From NCBI GenBank assembly GCA_000091205.1, contig AP006497.2: a stretch of DNA of 64,000 nt. One strand, given 5' to 3'. Positions 1,817 to 61,677 of this stretch are shown here, one piece after another. Both the position numbers and the translations under genes were made by a program. The DNA comes from Cyanidioschyzon merolae. Its lineage: Eukaryota. Position 1 is the stretch's first letter. The number at the start of each line of letters is the position of its first letter. The notes under the pieces were generated by a model, which was given only the letters and a program-made list of their open reading frames with translations, did no database searches and was not told the origin of the DNA.

Positions 1817-4800
1817 TCAGAAATCGACACCTTCAATACGGTCTTCGATTTCGCGGTACAGATCCCGCAAGCGTTCGATATTCTCCTCGGAGGTTTCCCA
1901 GTAGCCACGGCCGTGTGCCTCCAGCATCGTTGTCACCATAGAGCGGAAGCTGTTGGGATTCGAGTCCATGAGCTTCTTCCGCATGGCCTCGTCGACAAAG
2001 AAGGTCTGGTTGGCGTTCTCATAGACCCAGTTGTCGACAGCGTCCGAGGTCACCGAGAACGCCATGGTGTTCCGCAAACGCTTGGAAAGTTCTCGCACAC
2101 CTTCGTAACCAGAGTTCACGAGTCCGTCGATCCACTTGGGATTCAGCAGTTTGGTCCGGCTATCGAGACGAATGGTCTCGTCGAGGCTGCGCACGGCAAC
2201 GTTCGCCGTCGTCGAGTCCGCGATATACGAGCGGGGCTTGCGCTTGTCACCCCGAAGGGCGGCAACCCACTTCTCGTTTGCGCCATCTGCATAATTCGAG
2301 ACGTCCGTCAAGGAGATCTCAGACGAATCCAGATTCTGCATCGTGACCTCGACGGTTTTGAGCGCCCGCTCGAAGCGCTGCCGCGCGGGAATCATGGCCC
2401 CCGGGCGATCACTATCGTAGGCGAAGGATTTGCGAGAGAGGTACTGTTCCTGGAGCTGCTGTTCATCGGTCCATCCTCCATTTTCAATGGCAATGCCAAC
2501 GTTCGCAGAATAACTGCCCGATGCATTCGAAAACACACGCGTTGCTGCCTCCCGTACACTGATGTTCTCCTCGGCTGCCTGCTCCAGGGCGTGCTTGCGC
2601 ACGTAGTTCATCTCGGGCGGTTCATCAGCCTCTGCTGCCATCTTGATCGCTTGGTCCATCAGCGCCATCTGGTTGATCAACAGATCGCGAAAGATGCCGC
2701 TAACCGTGACGACCACATCGATTCGTGGGCGTCCCAGCTCCGAGAGCGACACCAGCTCCACCCGGTTGACTCGTCCCGATGCGTCCGGCACCGGACGTGC
2801 CCCAATGAGCCACAGCACCTGGGCAATGCTCTGGCCAAACGACTTGATCGCCTCTGTGCCATAAAGTACCAGCGATACCGTCTCTGGCATTTGACCTTGG
2901 TTCGCGGCTGCTTCCCGCTCGAGCAGGCGCTCTACGACGACTTTGGCTTCGGCGAAGGCCGAACTCGTCGGAATCGACTGCGGATCCAGCGCGTGAATGT
3001 TCTTGCCGGTTGGGACGACGGCGGGGTTCCGGATGGGATCTCCCCCCGGACCCGGTTCGATGTAACGTCCTTGGAGTGCCTGCATCAGCGAACCGAGCTC
3101 GTTATCCTTAATGATCTGCTCTAGGCAGACCTCAAGGTACTCAAAGAGCGGCTTCAGGTCTCGTGCTGAGCACTGGGGAAAGCCGCTCTCCTCGAGCGCC
3201 ACCAGATACGTCGGTTTGATCGCTTCGGACAGGAACGATACCATCACGCGATCAATGCGTCCATCCTTGTTGACTGACTTGGAGACAACCCGCTCAACAG
3301 CGTTGCGGCACGCACGCTGAATGCGATCCAACAGCTCGACATCGTCTAGCGCTGTTGAGCGGTACAACTGCTCAATATCCCGATCAACAGACTCGGCTAC
3401 AATACGGGGCAAGGCCTTGAGTCCTTTCTCCGGCCGATCGACACCGGCGATATTCACGAGTGTTGCTACCGCCTCCGCCGCAGTCGGTGGTTTGCCTATC
3501 GTATGCAGCCCGATCGGCAACAAACGAGCTTCTATCTCCATGAGACGGGCGTAGATCGATCCAATAACCTGGTCCCGCTCTTGACGCGTGAGTTGATCGA
3601 ATCCGTCTACGGGCAAGTTGGGAATGTCTCGGTCGAGGTTGCACTGTCGAGCGGTTGCGACGATCGCTGCGCACAGTGCAGCAGCTCTGGACTCATTCGC
3701 ACGCAGTTCCTGGTACTCCCGGATAAGCGATTGACACTCTTTGAGTTCCTTGTAGAGGCCGGCGTTCTCTGCAGGCGGTGTAAGGTAGGAGATGATTCCG
3801 GCGTAGGAGCGTCGCTTCGCTATGGTTGCCTCCGAGGGATTATTCGCGGCATAATAGTAGAGGTTGGGTAGACCCCCGATGAGAAGGTCGGGGTAGCAAT
3901 CTCCACTCATGCCGACCTGTTTGCCCGGCATAAATTCCAGACTTCCATGCGTTCCAAAATGAATCACCGCATTCGCGTCGAAAATCTTCTGCAACCACGT
4001 ATAGCAGGCTGCGAATCCATGATGCGGCGATGCAGACTTGGAGAACAGCAGCCGCATAGGGTCGCCTTCGTACCCGAAACTTGGTTGCACGACCACGGCG
4101 ACATTTCCGAACTGTGCACCGTAGACCAGCAGATTTGTGCCGTCGGTGTTCAGGGTACCGGGAGGCGGACCCCAGTGCTCCTGCAATGAACGCTGATACT
4201 CACATAGACGTTCGTATTCGGATACAGGCATTCGATAGAGCACGTTGAGTTCAGGCGAGCTGATTTTGGCCTCGCGATCGTGCAGTACGCGCTCCATCAA
4301 CGCATCAACAGTCTCGGGAATATCACCGACGGTATAACCATCCAGCTTCATTGCCTGGAGGACCTTGTGGATCGAGCCGAACACGTCCAGATAGGCCGCG
4401 GTACCGACATTGCCCTTGTCTGGTGGAAACGAGAACACGACGACTGCAACCTTCTTCTCGCGGTTCTTCATGCGTCCAAGTTGGGCCCACTTCAGCGCTC
4501 GTGACGCCAGCAAATGAATGCGATCGTGCAGTGGAATACTCCGCCCTGTGAGTCCGTCTCGCCCCGCATAGATGAGCGGCTCGATCGCGCCGTCCAGCTC
4601 AGGCAGACTAACCTGTAATGCAGTCTGAATCGGATGCAGTCCGAGCTCGCTTCGCTTCCACTCATCAAATGTCTGGAATACAAGCGGCAGCGAGCAAATG
4701 TATGGGCGATTCAGGGCTTTGAGGGCTGCAACTGCGCGCGGATGGTCCTGTTTGGCGGGACCCCCAACCAGCGCAAATCCCGTAAGCGACACAACGACGT

Positions 4801-6091
4801 CGACCAGGGGCACTGCTGTATTCAGCGCATAAAAGAAACGGTTCACTGGCTCGCTGAAATCCAGGGCTCCCGAGAAAATCGGGATTACTTTCGCTCCACG
4901 GGCCTCCAGTTCCTGGATGAACGACACATAGTGACAATCATCTTTGGTGACCAGATGAGAGCGCTGCAGTACGATGCCGATGGTGGGCGCATCATTCGCA
5001 AGCCTTGCTCGCGGAGCGTGCTCCTTGTCGTACCAACGTATGTACTCGGTGACGTCCTCAAACATCTTGGGTGCCACAGGATGCCAGATTCCTGCATCCG
5101 GAAACAGGACCGGATCCTTCACTTCAAACTGGAAGCTCTGAACATCCTGAACGTACTTGGATGCAACCATTAAGATCATGTTTTCGAGGTTCTCTACAGT
5201 GCCCCCGAGCCAGTACTGAAAAGAGAGCATAAACGATCGCGCATCCTGAGCCTTGTCGCTCGGCAAGTACTTAAGCACCTTTGGCAGAGTGCGCAGCAAG
5301 CGAAGCATTTGGGACTCGAAGTCTGCACCCTGTTGTTCTCGCCGTTTCTTCATGATCTGCCCGATGAACGATGTCGTAGACTGTCCAGTCTGGTTCAGTT
5401 GGCCCATACTAAAAGCCCCGAGTTTGTTCAGTTTCATCACCGGAGGTAAGGACGGAAACACGACGCATGCATCGAGACGATCTCTTACAGGCGCGACGGC
5501 GGCGACGACCTTGTCGGCAAGCTCTTGGACAAAAATCAGAGATCCGATGAAAATGTTCGCATCCGCAATATCGCGCTTGAAGGCGTTGTAGTTGGCCTCG
5601 TTTCGAAGCTCCTCCAGGAGATAGCCACTCAGTTCCACCGCCATGTGCTCCTGTTTCGCGTTGATCTTTCGAACCGCAGCCGTCAGCGTCGACTGGTACT
5701 GCGACTCCAACACGACATATACAATTTTGACCAGTTTCCGTCCTTCTAGCACTGGAGGTACAATGTGCCTGTCCTCTGGCTTCGACGCCGTAAACAGGCC
5801 GCCTGGCGCTCCGGCCAGAATGCCCGTACCGTCGTCATTCACACCGTTTCCACCAGCGTTCCAGTTCACTGCAGCACCCGTACCTTTACGGCGCTCGTTC
5901 GCAGCAGTCATCACCGACCGAGTGCGCATCTGTTGCGAGCGGCGGCTGCTCGAAGGCAGCACCAGCGGCCCCCAGGCTGAGGTCTTGCCCCACTGGTGCA
6001 GCGGCTGCACGGAACCAGCTTTCACAGCAACACCGGTTCCTAAAAAGCGCTTCTGCAACGTGGTACTCGGCGCTACAAAGCTAATCTCCAT
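1817..6091 (-). CDS. CHLH: Magnesium-chelatase subunit H (ChlH; CobN/Mg-chelatase family), 1424 aa, single uninterrupted ORF
   Basis: A 1424-aa ORF with a proper ATG at complement 6089-6091. The long protein ends in ...[69 protein letters not shown]. Its length matches plant/algal ChlH (~1380 aa). The N-terminus [11 protein letters not shown]... looks like a plastid transit peptide with an FVAP motif. Confidence 0.92.
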
Positions 6092-6650
6092 ATTTAACGC
6101 ACGGTGGAATGTTTACCAGACCCTACGCTGGACGGAAGAAGCGTTCAGGTTGTGAAGCGTACACTACTTCTCTTCGTCAAACGTGTCTACTATGCGCAAG
6201 CCTCTGCACACGTGACAAGATGCTACGAGTTACTATACGCTCCAGGGAACGCTGAACTAGAAAATATCAAAACCAGACGCCAAGCCACAGCAATGCTATG
6301 CGCTCGTAGCAAAAGAGCGCGATAGGTTGTAAAGTGACCCGGAGATCAGTTCGACGAGGGCATGCGGCGGTGCAGTCGCACCTGCGCGTATCAGCGACGG
6401 CAGGAACGGCGGCGACGATCAGAAAACGACCGATGCAGAAGCGTTGAGGGCCGCATTGCGCAGCGCCCCGGATGGTGACCTGAAGCGTTCCTCCGGAGGT
6501 GCAGGGAAATCAGTGGAATAAAATGGATATTTATGGATAGAGTGCGTCGGGATCTGATTCTTATCTTCACGAAACGATGACATCGGGACCATGGATCCCC
6601 GAATTCGGAATCTATGATGGCTTTCGGGAAAGCGTCCACCATGAAGCACT

Positions 6651-8560
6651 TTCCTTCAAGTTCCATTACCCATACTTGCTTTCGGATAAACAGGTCTTTT
6701 CATAGGTTCCATCCAGCGGCGAATGGCTGCCTTGAGCACTCGCCGTAGCGCCTGCACCGCTCAAGCAGATGCTGCATAGAGAGTCAGAGGGGCTCTGCAA
6801 TACCACAGAGGGCGTCGGCTCGAGGCGTCATTCATTCAACCTCGACTCGACATTCATAATGAAACTGGGAGCCTGCAAGCGCTGCTGACAGACCTACTGT
6901 CTGCGGCAGCGCGAAGCAACAGACTAGGAGTCCACTGCGACCAGGGCGACGCCCAGACGCAGTAAAGCGGCGTCTAGACCCAGAATGAACTGCGTTGCGG
7001 AAGAGTTGAACAGGTCTCACGAAAGCACCTGCCACTGGAGGAAGCATAAAGCGCGACCCGGGCAGACTCGTCCAGGTCGCGGGACCTTCCGCCTAGGGGG
7101 TAAGCTTTTGACGGCATCGGAAACTTTCCCCTCGTTTCACGTCTATCGTAAAGCGGGGAAGGAATCGTTATCTCGTTGCAATGTAGTGGTACGTTGCTGT
7201 TATTTTGTCTATACGGCGCTCGACAGGCGCACCTGGAATATCTGGCGGTCACGAGACAAGACGGATATCTCGCCGTTGAAGGGAAACCCGATCGTGATCA
7301 TTTGCGTGTTGCTCTGACGTACATGTTGTGTTTGCGTTACAGTCGTGCCAAAGTACAGTATTTCATCTCGATGGTGTTTCGACCATCAAGCAACGATATT
7401 CCGGTAGTTTTCGCGCAGTTTGTATCAGAAGCGTTCAAAAAGCGTTCTTTTTCAAAAAAACAAAAAAGGAAAGTTTTGGAGAGGCAAGTCGTCGATCCCA
7501 GAGGCCAAGTGTCACCGGATGCCGGAAAAAGCGGAGAGCACTGCCGAGCCCAGAAGCACTGGAGAGGACCGCGACGCGGAAAGTGCATGAGAACGACTTG
7601 GTCGTTGGTGCAGACGCCGGACACACGAAGATCCGTAGCCATCGCGGTTCGCGAGTGTGCGGAAGATGGCATGGACGGTAACCTACGTCCGAAAGACATG
7701 CGGCTTTTGAGCTTCTCGAGAGCGAGATGCTATCGAGAATCTGGAATCATGAATGCAAGGACAAAAATCGAGACGTGGAACGCAGGAATGAAGGATCACG
7801 TGGAAGCTTCGAGCGATGTGACGAGCCGAGGAGCAGACTTTCAAACTTTTCTGAAATGCATGGAAGTTCGCGTCGCTGACTGGGAGGCGCTGTGGAAAGC
7901 GTATCCAAAGCCCCGGTGGGCTCGTCTGCGTATGCGTCTATACTGTGGGAAGCAGCGCGCATTCGCCAATTTTTTCAATCCACTGAACGCCTTGAAGGAG
8001 GACGAGGGTCAGAGGCTCCTAGTAGCGTACGGAGCAGGGCGCTGGATGACCCAAAACAGGATATACGCCAGCTCCAACAACAAGAACGTACAAGGAGCGC
8101 GCACGGCGTTTTGTCACCATACCGATAGATGCGTTCCGAACATCGTACACACACCATGAGCTGGGCTGCACGCTTCAGAGGGTCGAGATAGAAAAGTGCC
8201 AGCGGGGCCCTGAGCATTTAAAAAAGTACGGAGCGCCGACGGAAGAGCAAATGGAAAGGAGGGCAAAAGTGCGAGAGCTACTCGCATTAGTATATACAAC
8301 CAGTGATGGCAAGAAACGTATGGAATTCGTGAACCGAGACTTGAACGCCGCTATCAATATTCGGAGAAGTGCGGTGATGGGGAAAAGACCTCCAGAGTTG
8401 ACAGGAGAGAATTTTGTGGGGCAGCGTCTCATGGTCGAATTGTACAGAATGAAAATGAAGCCAGTTGTAGGTGGCCAGTCGAGCGAGACAGTGAGGCTTC
8501 GGCGTTTCAGTTGGAGACGTTTTGTGTAGGGCGCGTTTGCCGCCACTGCTGTATACCGCT
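6651..8560 (+). mobile_element. TnpB/Fanzor-like RuvC-nuclease element, copy 1 (high-identity block; true ends uncertain)
   Basis: Direct repeat of 16372-18280 at about 99% identity overall (see the patchwork finding for how identity varies along the element). It encodes a multi-frame ORF set with a RuvC-I-like motif LVVGADAGHTKI and a RuvC-III motif FVNRDLNAAINIRR. I see no terminal inverted repeats. Weaker (~60%) similarity continues at least 60 bp beyond both edges. Confidence 0.55.
7328..8529 (+). CDS. TnpB/Fanzor-like RNA-guided-nuclease homologue, read across three frames
   Basis: Frame 2 (7328-7681) gives ...KVHENDLVVGADAGHTKI (G-x-D-x-G, RuvC-I-like). Frame 0 (to 8159) gives ...NALKEDEGQRLLVAYGAGRW...ASSNNKNV...FCHHTDRC (RuvC-II/bridge-like region with Cys residues). 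Frame 1 (8050-8529) gives ...ELGCTLQRVEIEKCQRG...KKRMEFVNRDLNAAINIRR (RuvC-III D-x-N-A-A-x-N-I). The frame switches are identical in copy 2, so they are more likely introns than random decay. The span is the sum of ORFs 7328..7681, 7176..8159 and 8251..8529. Confidence 0.5.
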
Positions 8561-9175
8561 GCGCCACCGTGTTCCCATGGAAGAGAAATTTCGAAAACTT
8601 GAAGACTGCGTGACTGGGAGCTTCTGCACACGAATTCGAGAGTATATCATTTGCTCTCCGATGCCTTGTTCGACGGCGTCGCGAATCTTCATGTTTCCCG
8701 TGGCGTATCGAACTGCAGCGGTAAAGATCCCAGGTATCCATTCCGAAAACCCGACCGAGAATCCTAAAACTACCTTTGAGTTCTCAAGTCCGTCTCTTTA
8801 TATTTCGAATGTCGACTTTGGAAATCACGGAATAAAACATTCAGAAAAAAATGCAAAGCCACGAACACAGTGCGAGCATCTCCCAATCCACTTGTAATCC
8901 AGGATTGGCGTGGTATCATCTGCGCGCTGTTGATGCAGCACTAGCACCAATACGCTGGTCTCTCAGGAACTCAAGTCGGTTGGGTCCTAAAAACCACCAG
9001 CGTGGGAGGAATTTTCATCTGTCCGTGCTAACCGCTTGGCTGTTTCTTTGAACCAGTGGCGGGAAGCAAGGCTCGGTTCACTAGGACGAGTCTAGCGGAG
9101 CGTTACGGTGCTGATCGAAAGGCCGTGCCGCTCTACCGCCGAGCACTCCGAGTTCATGTGGCTGGCTCTTTCGAC

Positions 9176-15931: not shown

Positions 15932-16371
15932 CCACGAGCAGTGCGAAAGGGCAAGTACTCGGAGCCTGGAAACACAGCGTCAGTGCCAGTTCGAGACTGA
16001 GCGACCTGCGTCCGTCTTGGTAGAGGTTTTCAACTTGGCAGGCTCGCGAAGCCGACTTTTCGGTTAAGGGACGCACTGTTGCTGCTCTTTAATCCTAACG
16101 AGAGCTTGCCTCTTCAGCAGAGACTACCGCGTTCCAATAGCCCCGCAGTAAAGTTCGTGAAGAGAATAGAGTCTGGTTTTTCACGCGGCTCTGCGGGGGT
16201 AGCGTCTACCGCTGGTGTTTTAAGAAAAAGCGGTACGATGTGTGGTTTTGGAGCAAAAGAGCATCGCGCAGCGTAGATATGTCCTCGATGACAGAACGTC
16301 TCCATTGATCAGGGATCCCAGATTGCGGGATGGATTTCGGCAAGCGGGAAAGTGTTTATGAAACTGTACCC

Positions 16372-18280
16372 TACCTTCAAGTTCCATTACCCATACTTGC
16401 TTTCGGATATACAGGTCTTTTCATAGGTTCCATCCAGCGGCGAATGGCTGCCTTGAGCACTCGCCGTAGCGCCTGCACCGCTCAAGCAGATGCTGCATAG
16501 AGAGTCAGAGGGGCTCTGCAATACCACAGAGGGCGTCGGCTCGAGGCGTCATTCATTCAACCTCGACTCGAGATTCGTAATGAAACTGGGAGCCTGCAAG
16601 CGCTGCTGGCAGACCTACTGTCTGCGGCAGCGCGAAGCAACAGACTAGGAGTCCACTGCGACCAGGGCGACGCCCAGACGCAGTAAAGCGGCGTCTAGAC
16701 CCAGAATGAACTGCGTTGCGGAAGAGTTGAACAGGTCTCACGAAAGCACCTGCCACTGGAGGAAGCATAAAGCGCGACCCGGGCAGACTCGTCCAGGTCG
16801 CGGGACCTTCCGCCTAGGGGGTAAGCTTTTGACGGCATCGGAAACTTTCCCCTCGTTTCACGTCTATCGTAAAGCGGGGAAGGAATCGTTATCTCGTTGC
16901 TATGTAGTGGTACGTTGCTGTTATTTTGTCTATACGGCGCTCGACAGGCGCACCTGGAATATCTGGCGGTCACGAGACAAGACGGATATCTCGCCGTTGA
17001 AGGGAAACCCGATCGTGATCATTTGCGTGTTGCTCTGACGTACAAGTTGTGTTTGCGTTACAGTCGTGCCAAAGTACAGTGTTTCATCTCGATGGTGTTT
17101 CGACCATCAAGCAACGATATTCCGGTAGTTTTCGCGCAGTTTGTATCAGAAGCGTTCAAAAAGCGTTCTTTTTCAAAAAAACAAAAAAGGAAAGTTTTGG
17201 AGAGGCAAGTCGACGATCCCAGAGGCCAAGTGTCACCGGATGCCGGAAAAAGCGGAGAGCACTGCCGAGCCCAGAAGCACTGGAGAGGAGTGCGACGCGG
17301 AAAGTGCATGAGAACGACTTGGTCGTTGGTGCAGACGCCGGAAACACGAAGATCAGGAACCATCGCCGTGCGCGAGTGTGCGGAAGATGGCGTGGACGGT
17401 AACCTACGTCCGAAAGACATGCGGCTTTTGAGCTTCTCGAGAGCGAGATGCTATCGAGAATCTGGAATCATGAATGCAAGGACAAAAATCGAGACGTGGA
17501 ACGCAGGAATGAAGGATCACGTGGAAGCTTCGAGCGATGTGACGAGCCGAGGAGCAGACTTTCAAACTTTTCTGAAATGCATGGAAGTTCGCGTCGCTGA
17601 CTGGGAGGCGCTGTGGAAAGCGTATCCAAAGCCCCGGTGGGCTCGTCTGCGTATGCGTCTATACTGTGGGAAGCAGCGCGCATTCGCCAATTTTTTCAAT
17701 CCACTGAACGCCTTGAAGGAGGACGAGGGTCAGAGGCTCCTAGTAGCGTACGGAGCAGGGCGCTGGATGACCCAAAACAGGATATACGCCAGCTCCAACA
17801 ACAAGAACGTACAAGGAGCGCGCACGGCGTTTTGTCACCATACCGATAGATGCGTTCCGAACATCGTACACACACCATGAGCTGGGCTGCACGCTTCAGA
17901 GGGTCGAGATAGAAAAGTGCCAGCGGGGCCCTGAGCATTTAAAAAAGTACGGAGCGCCGACGGAAGAGCAAATGGAAAGGAGGGCAAAAGTGCGAGAGCT
18001 ACTCGCATTAGTATATACAACCAGTGATGGCAAGAAACGTATGGAATTCGTGAACCGAGACTTGAACGCCGCTATCAATATTCGGAGAAGTGCGGTGATG
18101 GGGAAAAGACCTCCAGAGTTGACAGGAGAGAATTTTGTGGGGCAGCGTCTCATGGTCGAATTGTACAGAATGAAAATGAAGCCAGTTGTAGGTGGCCAGT
18201 CGAGCGAGACAGTGAGGCTTCGGCGTTTCAGTTGGAGACGTTTTGTGTAGGGCGCGTTTGCCGCCACTGCTGTGCACCGC
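16372..18280 (+). mobile_element. TnpB/Fanzor-like RuvC-nuclease element, copy 2
   Basis: Direct repeat of copy 1. The ORFs 16897..17880 and 17972..18250 match 7176..8159 and 8251..8529. The last ~850 bp are identical; differences cluster around 17280-17400 (G-x-D-x-G is retained: LVVGADAGNTKI). The right edge lies ~50 bp upstream of the DUF1992 ORF. Confidence 0.55.
17049..18250 (+). CDS. TnpB/Fanzor-like nuclease homologue, copy 2 (multi-frame)
   Basis: Same frame structure as copy 1, with RuvC-I-like VVGADAGNTKI and RuvC-III FVNRDLNAAINIRR. Confidence 0.5.
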
Positions 18281-18325
18281 TGACGACTGCTTTCGACTTT
18301 TGAAAGGCGTTTGCTAGCGGTGTAA

Positions 18326-26354: not shown

Positions 26355-26630
26355 TATGACAGCAAACAGAGCCAGGCGAGTCCTTCAATGTTAGAGAAGT
26401 TTTCCGCGAATCCGATCAGGGCCTGGTGGGTCCTTCTACCGTAGTGTCGTGACCGCCGACTGCAAACAAAGCCAGGCGAGTCTTCGAGACTTTGCGTAGT
26501 CTTCCGCGTTGTCGACAAAAGCCAGACAGCTCTCGCAATCTTACGGTCCTCTTCCGCGCCCTCAAACGGAGTCAGGCGGATCTTTACGTCGCAGTGTAGT
26601 TACCTGCGACGATGAATAGAGCCAGGCGAA
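26355..26630. repeat. Degenerate ~50-60-bp tandem repeat (about 5 units) directly upstream of the M16 peptidase start codon
   Basis: The units share '(a)caaa(g)agccaggcga(g/a)tc...cttccgcg', for example cagcaaacagagccaggcgagtcc...ttttccgcg, ctgcaaacaaagccaggcgagtct...gtcttccgcg, gacaaaagccagacagctc...cctcttccgcg, atgaatagagccaggcgaatacc. Confidence 0.6.
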
Positions 26631-28670
26631 TACCCTTTTTTCTGACGTTTTCACTCACGAGCAGGCACCGGGCCGACGCGCAATGGTGCAGTGTGCTTCT
26701 CACTCTATGCTCACGAGCACGCGAAGGCAACTCATGAAGCGGCAGTTTGTTTTCGAAGTGTGTTCACTCGGGGGTACGAAATCTCCGCCTCGCACTTGAT
26801 TTGACCAGGTCGAAACAGTGGGCATTATGCTGGGAGCATTCTACGCTGGAATCTGTATACCAGCACCTCATTGTTTTTGTTTGTTTTCTACCAGCTGTTG
26901 AACAAACCCGGAGTATCCTGTGGATCGGAGAATAGCTGCGGAAAGACGATACGCGGTCACTGGTGGCTTACGAAGGACCGCGTTGCTTCGGCAAGCCAAT
27001 TATTCTACTATTAGCAGGTAGGTGAAGCTCCTGTCACGCAGTCCTCATTCAGAACGTCGCGTACCTAAACCAGAACTTGATTAACTCGATGAATATGAAT
27101 GCCTCTTCCTCGATCTTTTCCACTCGATAGATTCCCCAAGAAATGCTACCGAACAAGGCTAAGGATGCAAAGTCTTCGCACCGTGGATACGACCGGTGAT
27201 TACCAGACACGAATGTACTGGAAACAAATCGCGTTTCTATGGAGGAGTATCGCGCATTGACCAAGTACCTATCGATCTCGTACCGAGTCGCTAACGCTTA
27301 CTACATGGCGGGACGGATGCTCGCCAACTGTGGGGAGCATTCACCTGCGAGAAACGATAGACCTGTCCATAGGCTGGCAAAGAGCAGCAAACCGCTGTTC
27401 AGAAAGCAGAGGCAAGGAGCCTCTACAAAAGCGTCACCCCAAGCGCCGATTTCATCCTGTGTACGCCAACCAAGCGCCAAATGCATGGGATCATTCACCA
27501 TCTCGTCCTTCATCGAAGCGATTCGTGGCTTCTGTTTCCCACATGCCTCTGTCCAGGGCGTAGAACGTGTGGCTCCCGATTACCCAGAAGCGGTCGGCGA
27601 GTAGGCAGCTGAAATCCGCGTCGAGCTGCTGTTCCTGCTAGCCTCTTCTTTCTCGGTACGTCCGGTCAAAGGAGTCTTGTTTTTCGTGAAACACCGACTC
27701 GAAGCTCACCGATCCATCAATGAGTCGTGCCCATCTGGGACACACTTCCTCGATGAATCGCTCTTCGACATGTCGTTCTTGATGTCACCTGGCCCTGAAG
27801 TGGTGTGTTGCACCTCTGGTCATGCACTGGAGGGAGTGGTATGAGGCGCCTCGGTCCACGGGCGTGCTCGCGACCGAGAAGGTAGCAAAGAGGTATTCGA
27901 CGAGTCGCACGTATGCATACTTATAGAGAAAGCAAGTTTCGGTTCTACCTCTCACCCAATAAGACTGAATCCCGACGGAAACGAACCGATGTAGAGGGTA
28001 CCGATCACGGCTATGCTACCGCGCCAGGTAGCGGGGAAGAAGAGATCGGACAAGGAAGAAAAAAGATCCTCACGAAAAGAGGACAATAGGAGGCAGGAAG
28101 GAAAAACACGTCGGATCGGAACCATCAGTTTGCTGTCGTCGTTAATGACTTGCTAATACAACACAACAACGAGAAGAATCTTTTGAAGCGTGCGATGCAG
28201 GTCGCCAGGCGCGATCGCGTAGCTTCGAACTCGACAAGTCTCGCGGAGCGTCTCCCGCCTTGCCGCGCATCGTCGAGCATCTAATCCAGGGCACCCGGAC
28301 ACCCAGCGCTGCTACCTGTCCACATGGTTCTCGGAATCTTTCGATCAAACCTTCATGCGATCATACAGTTCATGTTCACGACAGAACATGTCGTACGGTA
28401 TGATCCAAGGATCGGAAGTTTGCATACTCACACACATAGACAGTCACGCTTCCCAGTGTACCTTGAGCGGTCGCCACACCACCTCAGCGACTGGAACCTT
28501 AATAGCACAGATACCAAACAGGATCAAACCATGCCCAGCCGCTCCTACACCAGACGTCTGGGGACAGAGGCGCAAAGCAATGCTCGGATGCACGTCGCAC
28601 CCGATGACATCATCGATCTCATTCGAAACAAGGAGCATCTCACGAACGGGGCGCTCTATCCATGCGGCAT

Positions 28671-28762
28671 ACTGAAAAAATAACACAAAAAAGTAAGACA
28701 AGAAAAATGCGCATCCTCGGAGAACGCTGGCTTAAGGAAACGTTTTGTCCATGAGAAAAAAA
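28671..28762 (+). mobile_element. Short poly(A)-tailed retroposon copy (SINE-like or 5'-truncated retrocopy), 92 bp, flanked by a 12-bp TSD
   Basis: A perfect 12-bp direct repeat tccatgcggcat at 28659-28670 and 28763-28774 brackets the insert exactly. The insert ends in gagaaaaaaa and is about 85% identical to 44621-44710. It contains the micro-ORF MRILGERWLKETFCP* (28707-28754). Confidence 0.6.
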
Positions 28763-28992
28763 TCCATGCGGCATCATCGCGGCGGACTGCTGCACACACG
28801 TTGCGCCGAGACGCCAACGCGCCCCTGCGAATCGATCGTCGCGGATACGCCGCCGCCCGGCAGGCCGCAGCGGCGCCCGGCAGGAGATCGGATCTACGGG
28901 CGAGGCGCGGGTAGCCCGCAGGTCCCCGCAGTCGTAGCACGAGGCGTTGTCGTCACTGGTGCTGGCGAAGGTCTGCTTTCACTGGGCTCTTG

Positions 28993-43860: not shown

Positions 43861-44585
43861 AAGCGGAAGTCGAGGAACCTTGAGGCATATTTGGCTATAC
43901 GATGGATGTCGACCAGCTTGCAGCACGCTGGTACCGCTTCCTGCACAGTTTACCCATGGCTTGCAGCTGAGAACGCTATGCTCGACGCGCTGGAAGCATA
44001 TCTGTGTGTTGTATCGATGGCGATACTCAAGTTCGGAGCGGGCATCGATCCAACGAGCTCGCTGTCCACGACTGCGTCTAGACGAACAAGTTGATCGTTC
44101 AGCATAGCTCGAACAGGGCAGCTGCAGTCCAGCGAGTGCAGCCTAATGACCAAGTTGTCGTCTCATTTTAAACGATACATGCGTACGCATCCAGACGCTG
44201 AACACGCGTCCCCAGAATTGGATACAGTTCCAGTAGTCCAAAAAATCCGGAAGCGAATAGCGACCAGCTATGCAGCTTACGTGGCCCGACAAACGAGCGC
44301 CCAGCCTGCACAAGGACACATGCACCAAGGTCCCCAGAAACAGTCCCCGGTACGAGTTCCTTTGGATAAGCACCGCTATCGCTGAACTCGGCCTGCAATA
44401 CCTTAAGCAACGGGTCAGCTGGTGTGCTGGAAACGCTTCCATCCTTCGATTCATCGATCGGTTCAGCAAAAAGAGCCGTGTCTAGCGACGAAACCGCTTT
44501 TCGCACAACCTGTTCCAATGGTTGAAGCATGTCGCAGGGATATCGCGCTCTAGAGAAGCGCGTCTCTGCTTCATCGCACAGGAAC

Positions 44586-44710
44586 TTGGGAGTAGGGGGT
44601 TGATGCATACCTCACCGCGCACTGAAAAACACACACAAAAAAATAAGAAAAGAAAAATGCGCATAATCGGAGAACGCTGGCCTAAGTACACATTTTGTCC
44701 ATGAAAAAAA
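44586..44710 (+). mobile_element. Short poly(A)-tailed retroposon copy (longer, 125 bp) flanked by a 12-bp TSD
   Basis: A perfect 12-bp direct repeat tcgcacaggaac at 44574-44585 and 44711-44722 brackets an insert ending in catgaaaaaaa. Its 3' 90 bp match 28671-28762. It contains the micro-ORF MRIIGERWPKYTFCP*. Confidence 0.6.
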
Positions 44711-45447
44711 TCGCACAGGAACGAGGTCACAGGTTCCCAAGCGACAGCCTACACACTAAAACACGTTACATGTATTGTTCCAGCTAGAAGCGCTCTCCCC
44801 GTGCCGTTCGCGAAAACAAATACCAGCGCTAGAAGCGTGCTCGTCACTATGGATAGTTTAAAGCCGGCGTGCTTTGAAGCGCGATACGGCACGTTCCAGA
44901 AAACTCCACGAGCACGGAGCCTTTTATGCAGTGCCGAACGAGAGCCTCGAGGTCTGCTCGCGCTGCTGGGTGCACCGGGAAGGGCCTCACGGGCTTTTCC
45001 AGTCCATAAAAAGCACAGCTCAGCGCTATTCACTCGGGAACTCGAACAACATACCATCGCTTGGCGTACTGTGGCTGTGCTTGCAGTTTCCCAGTCGGTA
45101 CGTTGAAAGCTGATGCGGCTTAAGAGCGTATATTTTGTTCCAGAGGATCTTTGCGTCTCATCAGAGACCTTTGAGAAGCGCAAGCCCCACTCCGAGTCCA
45201 TACCATGGCACCTATGTGCAGCGCCACCACCGCTGCTCCGCTGTCGACGCTCACCCGATGACCAGTCCCGGAACGATACCCAGCGGCGATGGCGTACGTT
45301 GCTTCGTTTCGAAAAGGGTTGGCGAGCCACGTGCGTCGCTTCTTCGTCGCAACACGAAGCCGACCAGTGTGTGTTTAGCATATAGCACTCGGTTTGGAGA
45401 AGCTTGAGGGTGTCTACGCGCCGACCACGCTGACCCAGCAGACGTCC

Positions 45448-59357: not shown

Positions 59358-59667
59358 GAACGCCTCACATCAGCACGAATAGAGCCTAGGTACGTCATGA
59401 AACGAACGCCTAAAGCCCTGAACGCCTCACATCAGCACGAATAGAGCCTAGGTACGTCATGAAACGAACGCCTAAAGCCCTGAACGCCTCACATCAGCAC
59501 GAATAGAGCCTAGGTACGTCATGAAACGAACGCCTAAAGCCCTGAACGCCTCACATCAGCACGAATAGAGCCTAGGTACGTCATGAAACGAACGCCTAAA
59601 GCCCTGAACGCCTCACATCAGCACGAATAGAGCCTAGGTACGTCATGAAACGAACGCCTAAAGCCCT
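59358..59667. repeat. Minisatellite: 62-bp unit x5 perfect tandem copies
   Basis: The unit gaacgcctcacatcagcacgaatagagcctaggtacgtcatgaaacgaacgcctaaagccct starts at 59358, 59420, 59482, 59544 and 59606. The array overlaps the stop codon of the coiled-coil gene on the minus strand. Confidence 0.95.
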
Positions 59668-60650
59668 GTGGCTTTCGACGTGCCCTCTCGTTGGGTATTT
59701 CGGCCGCGATTCCATTCCCCGTCAAGGTCGTAGAGACGCAACTCCAGCGCTCTGTTTCGTCTTTGCAATGTTTCCACCTCGTCAGAGAGGTGAAGTGACT
59801 TGAGCTTGAGGGCTTCGTAGGCCTCTCGCGTCGCATCCAAGGCTGTCTCAAGCTCTAGAACTCGCTTTCGGAGCGACTGCACTTGGTACTCAAGTCGCTC
59901 TCGTTCCGACTCTGCATTGGCGGCTGCGACTTTGGTCTCGACCAGCAAGCGCTCATAATCTTCTAAAGACGAAGGTTCCACACGTAAAAGTTCAGCGATA
60001 GACAGGCGCTCGACTTGTTCGGTATCCCAGTTCCCGGTTGATGACGTGGCTGGCGTCGGGCGTTGGCGTGACTCGTCGACACGGTCGTGCTGCAGCGTGT
60101 CCCCAGAAGTCCCGATACTGAGGTGTTCAGAACAAGTCACCAGCGACTTTGCCGGAGAGCACGCTTGTTCCGCGACGCGCCTCCGACTTGATGCTTCACG
60201 CGTTTCACCGGGGACAGCTTCCAGCGGCTCTTTTGAGGTGCGGCTCGATGAGCAAGTGTCAGCTGATGCGCAGCCTCTGTCCGTGCCGCCACGCGCTGCC
60301 AAGGCGGCTGTCGTGACTTGCACTCCAGGCAGCGATTCGTCTGTACATTCGTTGCTGAGAGCGTTTGAATTGAGGCCCGTCGCGTGTTCACCTCGCGTTG
60401 CGTCTCGACCGGTGGGGCAGCGCGCACTGGACGCGTCGCTTCCAGCGCTCGTCGACATGGGTAGGCAAGCGACTTTTGCCTTTTCTAAAACCAAAACCGG
60501 TACCGACCAACGGTGCACCCTGGTGCTGGCTAGTGTGTCTCTCGTCGGCTTGAGCAGCACGTTCACACACCGTCTCCACTGTGAGGCACAACGAAGCGCT
60601 TTTCCACGCGTCAACTCTCTGAAACGTCCAGGTAACGCGCACCGATGCAT
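59658..60650 (-). CDS. Hypothetical protein with a C-terminal coiled-coil
   Basis: The ATG at complement 60648-60650 is verified. The C-terminal ~110 aa (...LEDYERLLVETKVAAANAESERERLEYQVQSLRKRVLELETALDATREAYEALKLKSLHLSDEVETLQRRNRALELRLYDL) has heptad-like periodicity. The N-terminal half is Ser/Thr-rich. Confidence 0.45.
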   Translation of the reverse strand: MHRCALPGRFRELTRGKALRCASQWRRCVNVLLKPTRDTLASTRVHRWSVPVLVLEKAKVACLPMSTSAGSDASSARCPTGRDATRGEHATGLNSNALSNECTDESLPGVQVTTAALAARGGTDRGCASADTCSSSRTSKEPLEAVPGETREASSRRRVAEQACSPAKSLVTCSEHLSIGTSGDTLQHDRVDESRQRPTPATSSTGNWDTEQVERLSIAELLRVEPSSLEDYERLLVETKVAAANAESERERLEYQVQSLRKRVLELETALDATREAYEALKLKSLHLSDEVETLQRRNRALELRLYDLDGEWNRGRNTQREGTSKATGL

Positions 60651-61293: not shown

Positions 61294-61677
61294 GCAAGCG
61301 TACGCCGTTCTACTCGATAGATGATAAGCGGATTCCGATGTCTTCCATGATGAAACAGCAAGCGTACGCCGTTCTACTCGATAGATGAGAAACGGATTCC
61401 GATGTCTTCCATGATGAAACAGCAAGCGCGCGCCGTTCTACTCGATCGATGATAAGCGGATTCCGATGTCTTCCATGATGAAACAGCAAGCGTACGCCGT
61501 TCTACTCGATCGATGATAAGCGGATTCCGATGTCTTCCATGATGAAACAGCAAGCGCGCGCCGTTCTACTCGATCGATGATAAGCGGATTCCGATGTCTT
61601 CCATGATGAAACAGCAAGCGCGCGCCGTTCTACTCGATCGATGATAAGCGGATTCCGATGTCTTCCATGATGAAACA
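61294..61677. repeat. Minisatellite: 64-bp unit x6 tandem copies (minor variants)
   Basis: The unit gcaagcg[ta/cg]cgccgttctactcgat[a/c]gatga[t/g]aa[g/a]cggattccgatgtcttccatgatgaaaca starts at 61294, 61358, 61422, 61486, 61550 and 61614. The spurious minus-strand ORFs MLFHHGRHRNP... are read through it. Confidence 0.95.

Follow-up and report, generated by a model that had tools for sequence, protein, structure and literature searches.

Stringent pairs of long and short interspersed elements (LINEs and SINEs) share their 3' tail, as in UnaL2 and UnaSINE1 of the eel, and the RIME/ingi and NARTc/L1Tc pairs of trypanosomes include non-autonomous LINE derivatives, with duplications of 12 bp. The targets of L1 give duplications with an A-rich start. 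HAL1 is a non-autonomous deletion derivative of L1 (cited in PMC3627910). For the genome of Cyanidioschyzon merolae 10D, 26 class I elements, all closest to retrotransposons without long terminal repeats (non-LTR retrotransposons), and a transposon content of 0.7% have been reported (Nozaki et al. 2007, PMC1955436). That work counted elements related to reverse transcriptase (RT) by BLASTX, and its reported element counts describe no duplications, tails or short copies; the portions of the C. merolae transposon literature examined likewise make no mention of duplications, tails or a short subfamily. Here we analyze 64 kb of C. merolae 10D chromosome 15 (the window), read directly as sequence, in which two short A-tailed repeats, copies A and B, are found. 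We are highly confident that both are 5'-truncated products of target-primed reverse transcription (TPRT), copied from a LINE family or from its short derivative. They are dead-on-arrival insertions, and the family consists of a LINE that reaches 4.25 kb or more and a ~290-nt derivative with the same 3' end.

Two truncated copies and their family

Copies A and B (Table 1) share 88.5% identity across 78 nt (E=3e-19). Their basic structure, first described in a sequence-only reading of this DNA, can be read directly in the sequence: they are homologous, each ends in A7, and each lies between perfect 12-bp direct repeats. As also described there, copy B is 35 nt longer at the 5' end, starting at -81 with respect to the family consensus core, compared with -46 for copy A. 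The repeat search extends the duplication of copy A to a perfect 13-mer, ATCCATGCGGCAT, if the preceding A at 28658 is counted, and that of copy B to the perfect 13-mer ATCGCACAGGAAC, if the A at 44573 is counted. In copy B, the final AAC of the duplication is also present in the element consensus immediately 5' of where the copy is truncated, and the duplication measures 9 to 13 bp depending on the placement of the junction. First-order Markov simulations of the window gave a chance expectation of ~2.2 isolated 12-mer direct pairs, 60 to 400 nt apart, per 64 kb, and a lone pair of this kind in the window is unremarkable. Chance does not explain two such pairs that each adjoin the ends of homologous sequences with A tails. 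No third copy with the 3' core is present in the 64-kb window besides A and B, and the same architecture, with other repeats, is found at 21 further loci outside it.

The existence of other copies, proposed as a check by the sequence-only reading, was established by scanning JGI metagenomes for an exact 20-nt core of the element, TCGGAGAACGCTGGCNTAAG. The scan yielded 104 stretches, all of which belong to the same element except one that is unrelated (L049). These were sorted by their 3' flank into 41 groups and, after merging allelic and tandem groups, into ~37 distinct loci, all of them from seven metagenomes that also hold the window's own loci at 98.9 to 99.8% identity. Both A and B are present in a single metagenome contig, Ga0078972_1000908. 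Copy B was also found in the metagenome contigs L001-L003, L013, L039 and L092; in three contigs fetched via the STT3 gene (reached through the STT3 cluster representative), its flanks are 98.8% identical to the window. An exact-protein look-up of the SLC35B-like gene, made with two start variants, returned no record. Across 438 kb of representative contigs there were 51 family matches, 14 of which had not been selected by the search pattern. Extrapolated roughly from these element-containing contigs, a genome would have copies in a number of the order of 10^2.

All copies have a common 3' end, ...TCGGAGAACGCTGGCCTAAGTAAACGTTTTGTC(A/C)ATG, followed by a short tail of A4 to A9 (A7GA7 at one locus). 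The variable 5' end, which the sequence-only reading had taken as part of a retroposon signature, extends throughout the family from -1 to -4221 and is accompanied by variation in A-tail length. Relative to the core, the short copies start at -1, -25, -26, -31, -34, -34, -40, -46 (A), -48, -57, -81 (B) and -92. Copies of intermediate length start at ~-175 to -194 (5 loci), -241 to -257 (10 loci), -285 and -606, and the longest start at least at -1574, at least at -2836 and at -4210/-4221. Copy size spans 45 nt to ~4.25 kb.

Flanking duplications could be identified at 23 loci, and every one is different. Nine of the 23 are perfect, and the others have one or two mismatches (~5% overall). Their length is mostly 12 to 13 bp, or 13 to 14 bp when the A shared with the tail is counted, within a full range of 9 to 18 bp. 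Because each locus has flanking repeats of its own, these represent target-site duplications and not element sequence. The possibilities that the 12-mers belong to the element itself, or that it has no other copies and no variation in its tail, fail against 23 locus-specific duplications, ~37 loci and tails of A4 to A9. The start of the duplication is biased, with AT in 15 of the 23 and ATC in 12 of the 23, and the A-run is directly followed by T at 23, C at 11 and G at 3 of the 37 loci. At the 5' junction, microhomology averages 0.4 nt against 0.33 nt expected, that is, there is no excess.

One insertion can be compared with its uninterrupted target. In L053, a 45-nt copy has inserted into an antisense family member that is older, and three paralogous antisense copies show the target uninterrupted, with a single target site. 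When artificial empty sites were searched against all fetched contigs, only this nested copy and the tandem array of L020, L035 and L061 were recovered. In these three contigs, a unit made up of the last ~130 nt of the element and ~18 nt of flanking sequence recurs head to tail every ~150 nt, so that a truncated copy has given rise to a small tandem array.

Some insertion loci are shared between diverged contigs. L028 and L110, and also L072 and L095, represent the same loci in contigs that are 88 to 92% identical over several kilobases. These shared insertions indicate that at least two diverged Cyanidioschyzon lineages co-occur in the metagenomes and that some insertions predate their split.

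The RT-encoding parent and the template of A and B

Homology extends to ~4.2 kb upstream of the tail at two independent loci, L106:4840-9093(-) and L072:5003-9265(-), the second of which has an allelic long copy at L095:~1870-6134(+). In L043, L042, L036 and elsewhere, the copies are truncated or run off the end of the contig. In L106, L072/L095, L043 and L042, the long copies carry an RT open reading frame (ORF, taken from stop to stop) that contains a FADD/YADD-type motif and matches Pfam RVT_1 with E=4.7e-21 (75.9 bits against a gathering cut-off of 29.6). A longer parent with RT coding capacity, which the sequence-only reading had suggested seeking, is thus found in copies of up to ~4.25 kb. 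The best solved-structure matches of the RT are R2 (1.9e-18) and human L1 ORF2p (1.6e-13), R2 and L1 being the only PDB references. The LINE was represented by a 4,373-nt majority consensus in which two frameshifts were left, and its ORF was repaired to ~1,029 aa. The nearest database proteins of the repaired ORF, P0121 and P0122 (1,324 to 1,384 aa), combine an apurinic/apyrimidinic endonuclease (APE) domain, Exo_endo_phos (PF03372), with RVT_1, and they are 33 to 35% identical over 66 to 81% of the query (E ~1e-105). A C-terminal Cys-rich CX2C...C motif is present in the parent, and no PD-(D/E)XK motif was seen after it in an inspection by eye only.

Compared with this consensus, copy A is 90.0% identical to positions 4278-4367, the last ~90 nt of the 3' untranslated region (UTR), and copy B is 90.6% identical to positions 4240-4367, the last ~128 nt. 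The RT ORF ends ~200 to 360 nt before the core, and both copies are wholly within the 3' UTR. These matches to the very end of the LINE therefore identify A and B as 5'-truncated TPRT products. Target priming, proposed by the sequence-only reading for either a SINE or a 5'-truncated LINE end, is upheld by the ~37 loci with their locus-specific duplications, by the variable 5' ends and tails and by the RT-encoding parent. The same reading had presented a tiny retroposon as an element in its own right, and in this respect it must be revised to a truncation product of the LINE family.

In the mechanism that we propose, an element-encoded endonuclease would nick the bottom strand, with a preference for A|TC on the top strand, and the freed 3' end would use the short 3'-terminal A-run of the element RNA as its priming site. 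The RT would then copy the 3' UTR and stop early, after 92 nt in copy A and 125 nt in copy B. A staggered second nick 12 to 14 bp away, once filled in, would generate the flanking duplication. We infer this order of events, the action of an APE-type endonuclease in trans, and the use of either the LINE RNA or a short RNA as the template of A and B.

The structure of the long copies bears on where this endonuclease would come from. Family copies align to P0121 and P0122 from residue ~374 onward only. Upstream of this aligned part, the long copies show a weak match to the N-terminus that precedes the APE domain (E=0.001), and a possible remnant of the first APE motif ('ASWNICGIAS') followed by a K/R/S-rich stretch. 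Judged from their sequence, the recovered long copies appear to be endonuclease-less derivatives. Because two independent loci of ~4.25 kb share the endonuclease-less structure, the derivative itself would have retrotransposed, and these copies look like a retrotransposed non-autonomous derivative.

It is important to consider the observations that weigh against a target-primed origin of A and B from this family. Neither Pfam nor tblastn detects an APE domain in the long copies, although the mechanism needs an endonuclease, and an autonomous partner supplying it is assumed. Furthermore, the long copies come from metagenome relatives and not from the 10D genome, and the protein search returned no protein of the LINE family from C. 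merolae 10D. An orthologous empty site was not found for A or B, as every covering contig has the insertion, and at the syntenic loci of a related species (L004-L008, 78% protein identity) the intergenic sequence is too diverged to align. Finally, the A tails are short and narrow in range (4 to 9) and could be partly element-encoded instead of added poly(A).

Within the target-primed reading, the template may have been the LINE RNA or a shorter one. The segment from -215 to -140 sorts the copies into an L-type, which includes all long copies, an S-type (16 loci) and three intermediates. No S-type copy is longer than ~330 nt, whereas each of the nine copies of L-type or intermediate sequence reaches 379 nt or more upstream. 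Ten of the ~37 loci begin at -241 to -257 with CCTCGAGCCGACG..., five of them with verified duplications. The 3' ~140 nt of the S-type are common to the LINE, the LINE UTR also contains its 5' 35 nt, and the S-type looks like a discrete ~290-nt non-autonomous unit sharing the LINE tail.

In a modified form of the main explanation, compatible with it, the copies A and B could have been made from this SINE-like S-type RNA of ~290 to 330 nt, mobilized in trans, a serious possibility to which we assign somewhat less than an even chance. The distinct segment, the upper size limit and the cluster of 5' ends speak for it, as does the fact that S-type copies are more numerous than LINE-type ones. However, A and B contain the shared 3' part only and are not assignable to either type, being equally similar to the S-type and the L-type (means 0.84 to 0.86, best 0.91 to 0.93 for both). 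The S-type also has no tRNA-, 5S- or 7SL-like head. In a search for an RNA polymerase III (Pol III)-type head in the full S-type copy L024:5860-6230, Rfam returned no match at E<=10 and ARAGORN predicted no tRNA, and an Rfam scan of the whole window returned nothing. Moreover, the clusters of 5' ends, a second of which is found at ~-190, could be stop sites of the RT.

At L080:~420-1150, an S-type copy is joined at its 5' end to LINE ORF sequence (...GIDGIAAEWMKLV...TGTPSIP), with no recognizable duplication. This junction reflects either an internal deletion in a LINE or the nesting of one insertion in another.

The 15-codon frame, remaining alternatives and other repeats

The sequence-only reading had described a conserved 15-codon ORF in A and B, which does not hold at the level of the family. 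The ATG is kept in 28 of the 36 loci that are long enough and lost in the other 8. Among the 28 loci with an ATG, 21 stop after 10 codons (MRIIGERWPK-stop), as the family consensus does, 6 stop after 15 codons and one reads through. The 15-codon form results from different changes of the TAA codon, to GAA in copy A and to TAC in copy B. The invariance of GERW.K across loci is an artifact, since the search pattern required it. RNAalifold, applied to 25 loci, proposed the long-range stems GGACGU/ACGUUU, CCAG/CUGG and UCCGA/UCGGA with a covariation term of -0.2; one side of each stem falls within the invariant search pattern, so the stems are uninformative. The mini-ORF, which lies in the LINE 3' UTR, is most simply read as an accident of 3' UTR sequence, with no evidence for coding.

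These results make it very unlikely that the shared core has been kept by selection, either as a 15-aa micro-gene or as a regulatory module near genes. Copies A and B do both keep an ATG...TGA frame behind an A-rich tract, and both are intergenic and near gene starts. However, the start codon is missing or the frame ends at codon 11 in most of the family, the peptide changes between A and B include L to I, L to P and E to Y, and the invariant GERW.K and the proposed RNA structure lend no support, the former being imposed by the search and the latter lacking covariation. With ~one gene per 3.5 kb, an intergenic position is what survives selection in any case.

Even less probable is an origin of A and B as processed retrocopies, in which the LINE machinery, acting in trans, would have copied the 3' end of an ordinary host mRNA. 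The duplication, the A tail and the 5' truncation would look the same, but the longer copies continue upstream into the RT ORF and not into a host gene, and ~37 or more loci share one 3' end. A cut-and-paste DNA transposon or a miniature inverted-repeat transposable element (MITE) with a 12-bp duplication would also be short, dispersed and flanked by direct repeats, yet it merits practically no credence given a parent that encodes RT, two ends of which only the one with the A-run is fixed and the other varies, duplications that vary from 9 to 18 bp, and no terminal inverted repeats for A or B in the repeat search.

The features of A and B as truncated target-primed insertions are listed in Table 1, together with two related modules elsewhere in the window. 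The window has 55.6% G+C and long intronless ORFs on both strands. Its STT3 protein is most similar to Cyanidiales proteins and is identical to XP_005537611.1/BAM81575.1 of C. merolae 10D.

Table 1. Coordinates of copies A and B and of related modules in the 64-kb window
Feature	Position	Strand	Basis or remark
Copy A, 5' target-site duplication tccatgcggcat	28659..28670	+	sequence and repeat search
Copy A, 92-nt 5'-truncated retroposon	28671..28762	+	A7 tail at 28756-28762
Copy A, 3' target-site duplication tccatgcggcat	28763..28774	+	sequence and repeat search
Copy A, 15-codon ATG..TGA (MRILGERWLKETFCP-stop)	28707..28754	+	judged non-coding, not conserved in the family
Copy B, 5' target-site duplication tcgcacaggaac	44574..44585	+	last 3 nt (AAC) ambiguous with the element
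Copy B, 125-nt 5'-truncated retroposon	44586..44710	+	A7 tail at 44704-44710
Copy B, 3' target-site duplication tcgcacaggaac	44711..44722	+	sequence and repeat search
Copy B, 15-codon ATG..TGA (MRIIGERWPKYTFCP-stop)	44657..44704	+	not conserved in the family
Diverged module (~72%) like LINE 3' UTR -250..-90	6639..6835	-	left end of the first 1.9-kb repeat
Second copy of the diverged module	16369..16578	-	left end of the second 1.9-kb repeat (16374-18282)

The two diverged modules begin with CCTCGAGCCGACG, as the short S-type copies do, but have neither the 3' core nor the tail. They are related sequences and not TPRT copies with a tail and a duplication. Both belong to a pair of 1.9-kb repeats (6653-8561 and 16374-18282) that are 99% identical and remain weakly similar beyond the 99% block. 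Each repeat contains a 327-aa ORF (7176-8159 and 16897-17880), which is 55% identical (E=2e-67) to an ORF adjoining the LINE in L106. The L106 ORF shows GxDxGxxN, DExxTS and RDxxAAxNI motifs, which we take to be typical of TnpB/Fanzor nucleases. The 327-aa ORF had no Pfam or PDB sequence match. From these motifs and from PMC3627910, it is a Fanzor/TnpB-looking protein. About 150 Fanzor1 'CMe-1A' copies of unknown class have been described in C. merolae (PMC3627910), and the diverged module may be part of a CMe-1A-type element.

Other repeats in the window include two tandem arrays, at 59358-59668 (62 nt x 5, 100% identical) and 61294-61677 (64 nt x 6, 96%). In addition, the motif CAAAC(A/G)(A/G)AG(C/T)CAGGCG(A/G)(G/A)TC occurs three times, ~100 nt apart, at 26368-26640, just outside the start of the M16-peptidase gene (minus strand).

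Significance and comparison with known elements

These results account for two unusual intergenic repeats, which turn out to be common debris of retrotransposition, and remove a candidate micro-ORF. The published element counts were based on RT, and short copies without RT, such as A and B, would therefore have been missed. Since RT-based counts miss such copies, the figure of 26 elements probably understates past retrotransposition in C. merolae. Furthermore, perfect duplications and insertions shared across populations that have diverged by ~1% provide datable markers for the population history of Cyanidioschyzon. The AT(C) bias, together with long copies that have no endonuclease, raises the question of which protein in this tiny genome makes the nick.

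A broader picture can be offered tentatively, as a possibility that we consider rather unlikely in its entirety. C. merolae, quoted as being among the most transposon-poor of free-living eukaryotes (0.7%, 26 retroelements), might carry a hundred or more small retroposons, mostly copies of a headless ~290-nt SINE-like RNA derived from the LINE 3' UTR, in addition to an endonuclease-less LINE derivative. Both would be mobilized in trans by an endonuclease that prefers A|TC, and a related module would be built into the end of the Fanzor/TnpB-bearing repeats of CMe-1A type.

Among known systems, the insertions resemble those of mammalian L1-type elements in their fixed 3' end with an A-run, their variable 5' truncation and their locus-specific duplications. 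Unlike L1-type insertions, they have very short tails (4 to 9), and their duplications tend to start with AT(C), in contrast to L1 targets. They also show no excess of 5' microhomology, and the recovered long copies have no APE domain. The RT itself is only distantly related to that of L1 (E=1.6e-13), and R2 scores slightly better. With APE-type LINEs, the parent shares the RT and the C-terminal Cys-rich CX2C...C motif, and its nearest relatives have both APE and RT.

As in LINE/SINE pairs, the ~290-nt subfamily and the LINE have ~140 nt of 3' sequence in common, and both insert with the same kind of duplications and tails. The S-type nevertheless differs from the SINEs of such pairs in having no Pol III-type head, and it looks like a 3' UTR variant and not a composite SINE; recognition through a 3' stem-loop is not supported by covariation here. 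The resemblance to RIME/ingi and NARTc/L1Tc of trypanosomes is confined to the duplication length of ~12 bp. LINE deletion derivatives such as HAL1 find a parallel in the two copies of ~4.25 kb without an endonuclease domain. The 26 class I elements of 10D, finally, belong to the same genome and to the same class (non-LTR, RT-encoding) as the LINE family described here, which, compared by description only, is very probably among them or related to them. Non-LTR retrotransposons had thus already been reported in C. merolae, and copies A and B are a real and ordinary product of this class of elements.

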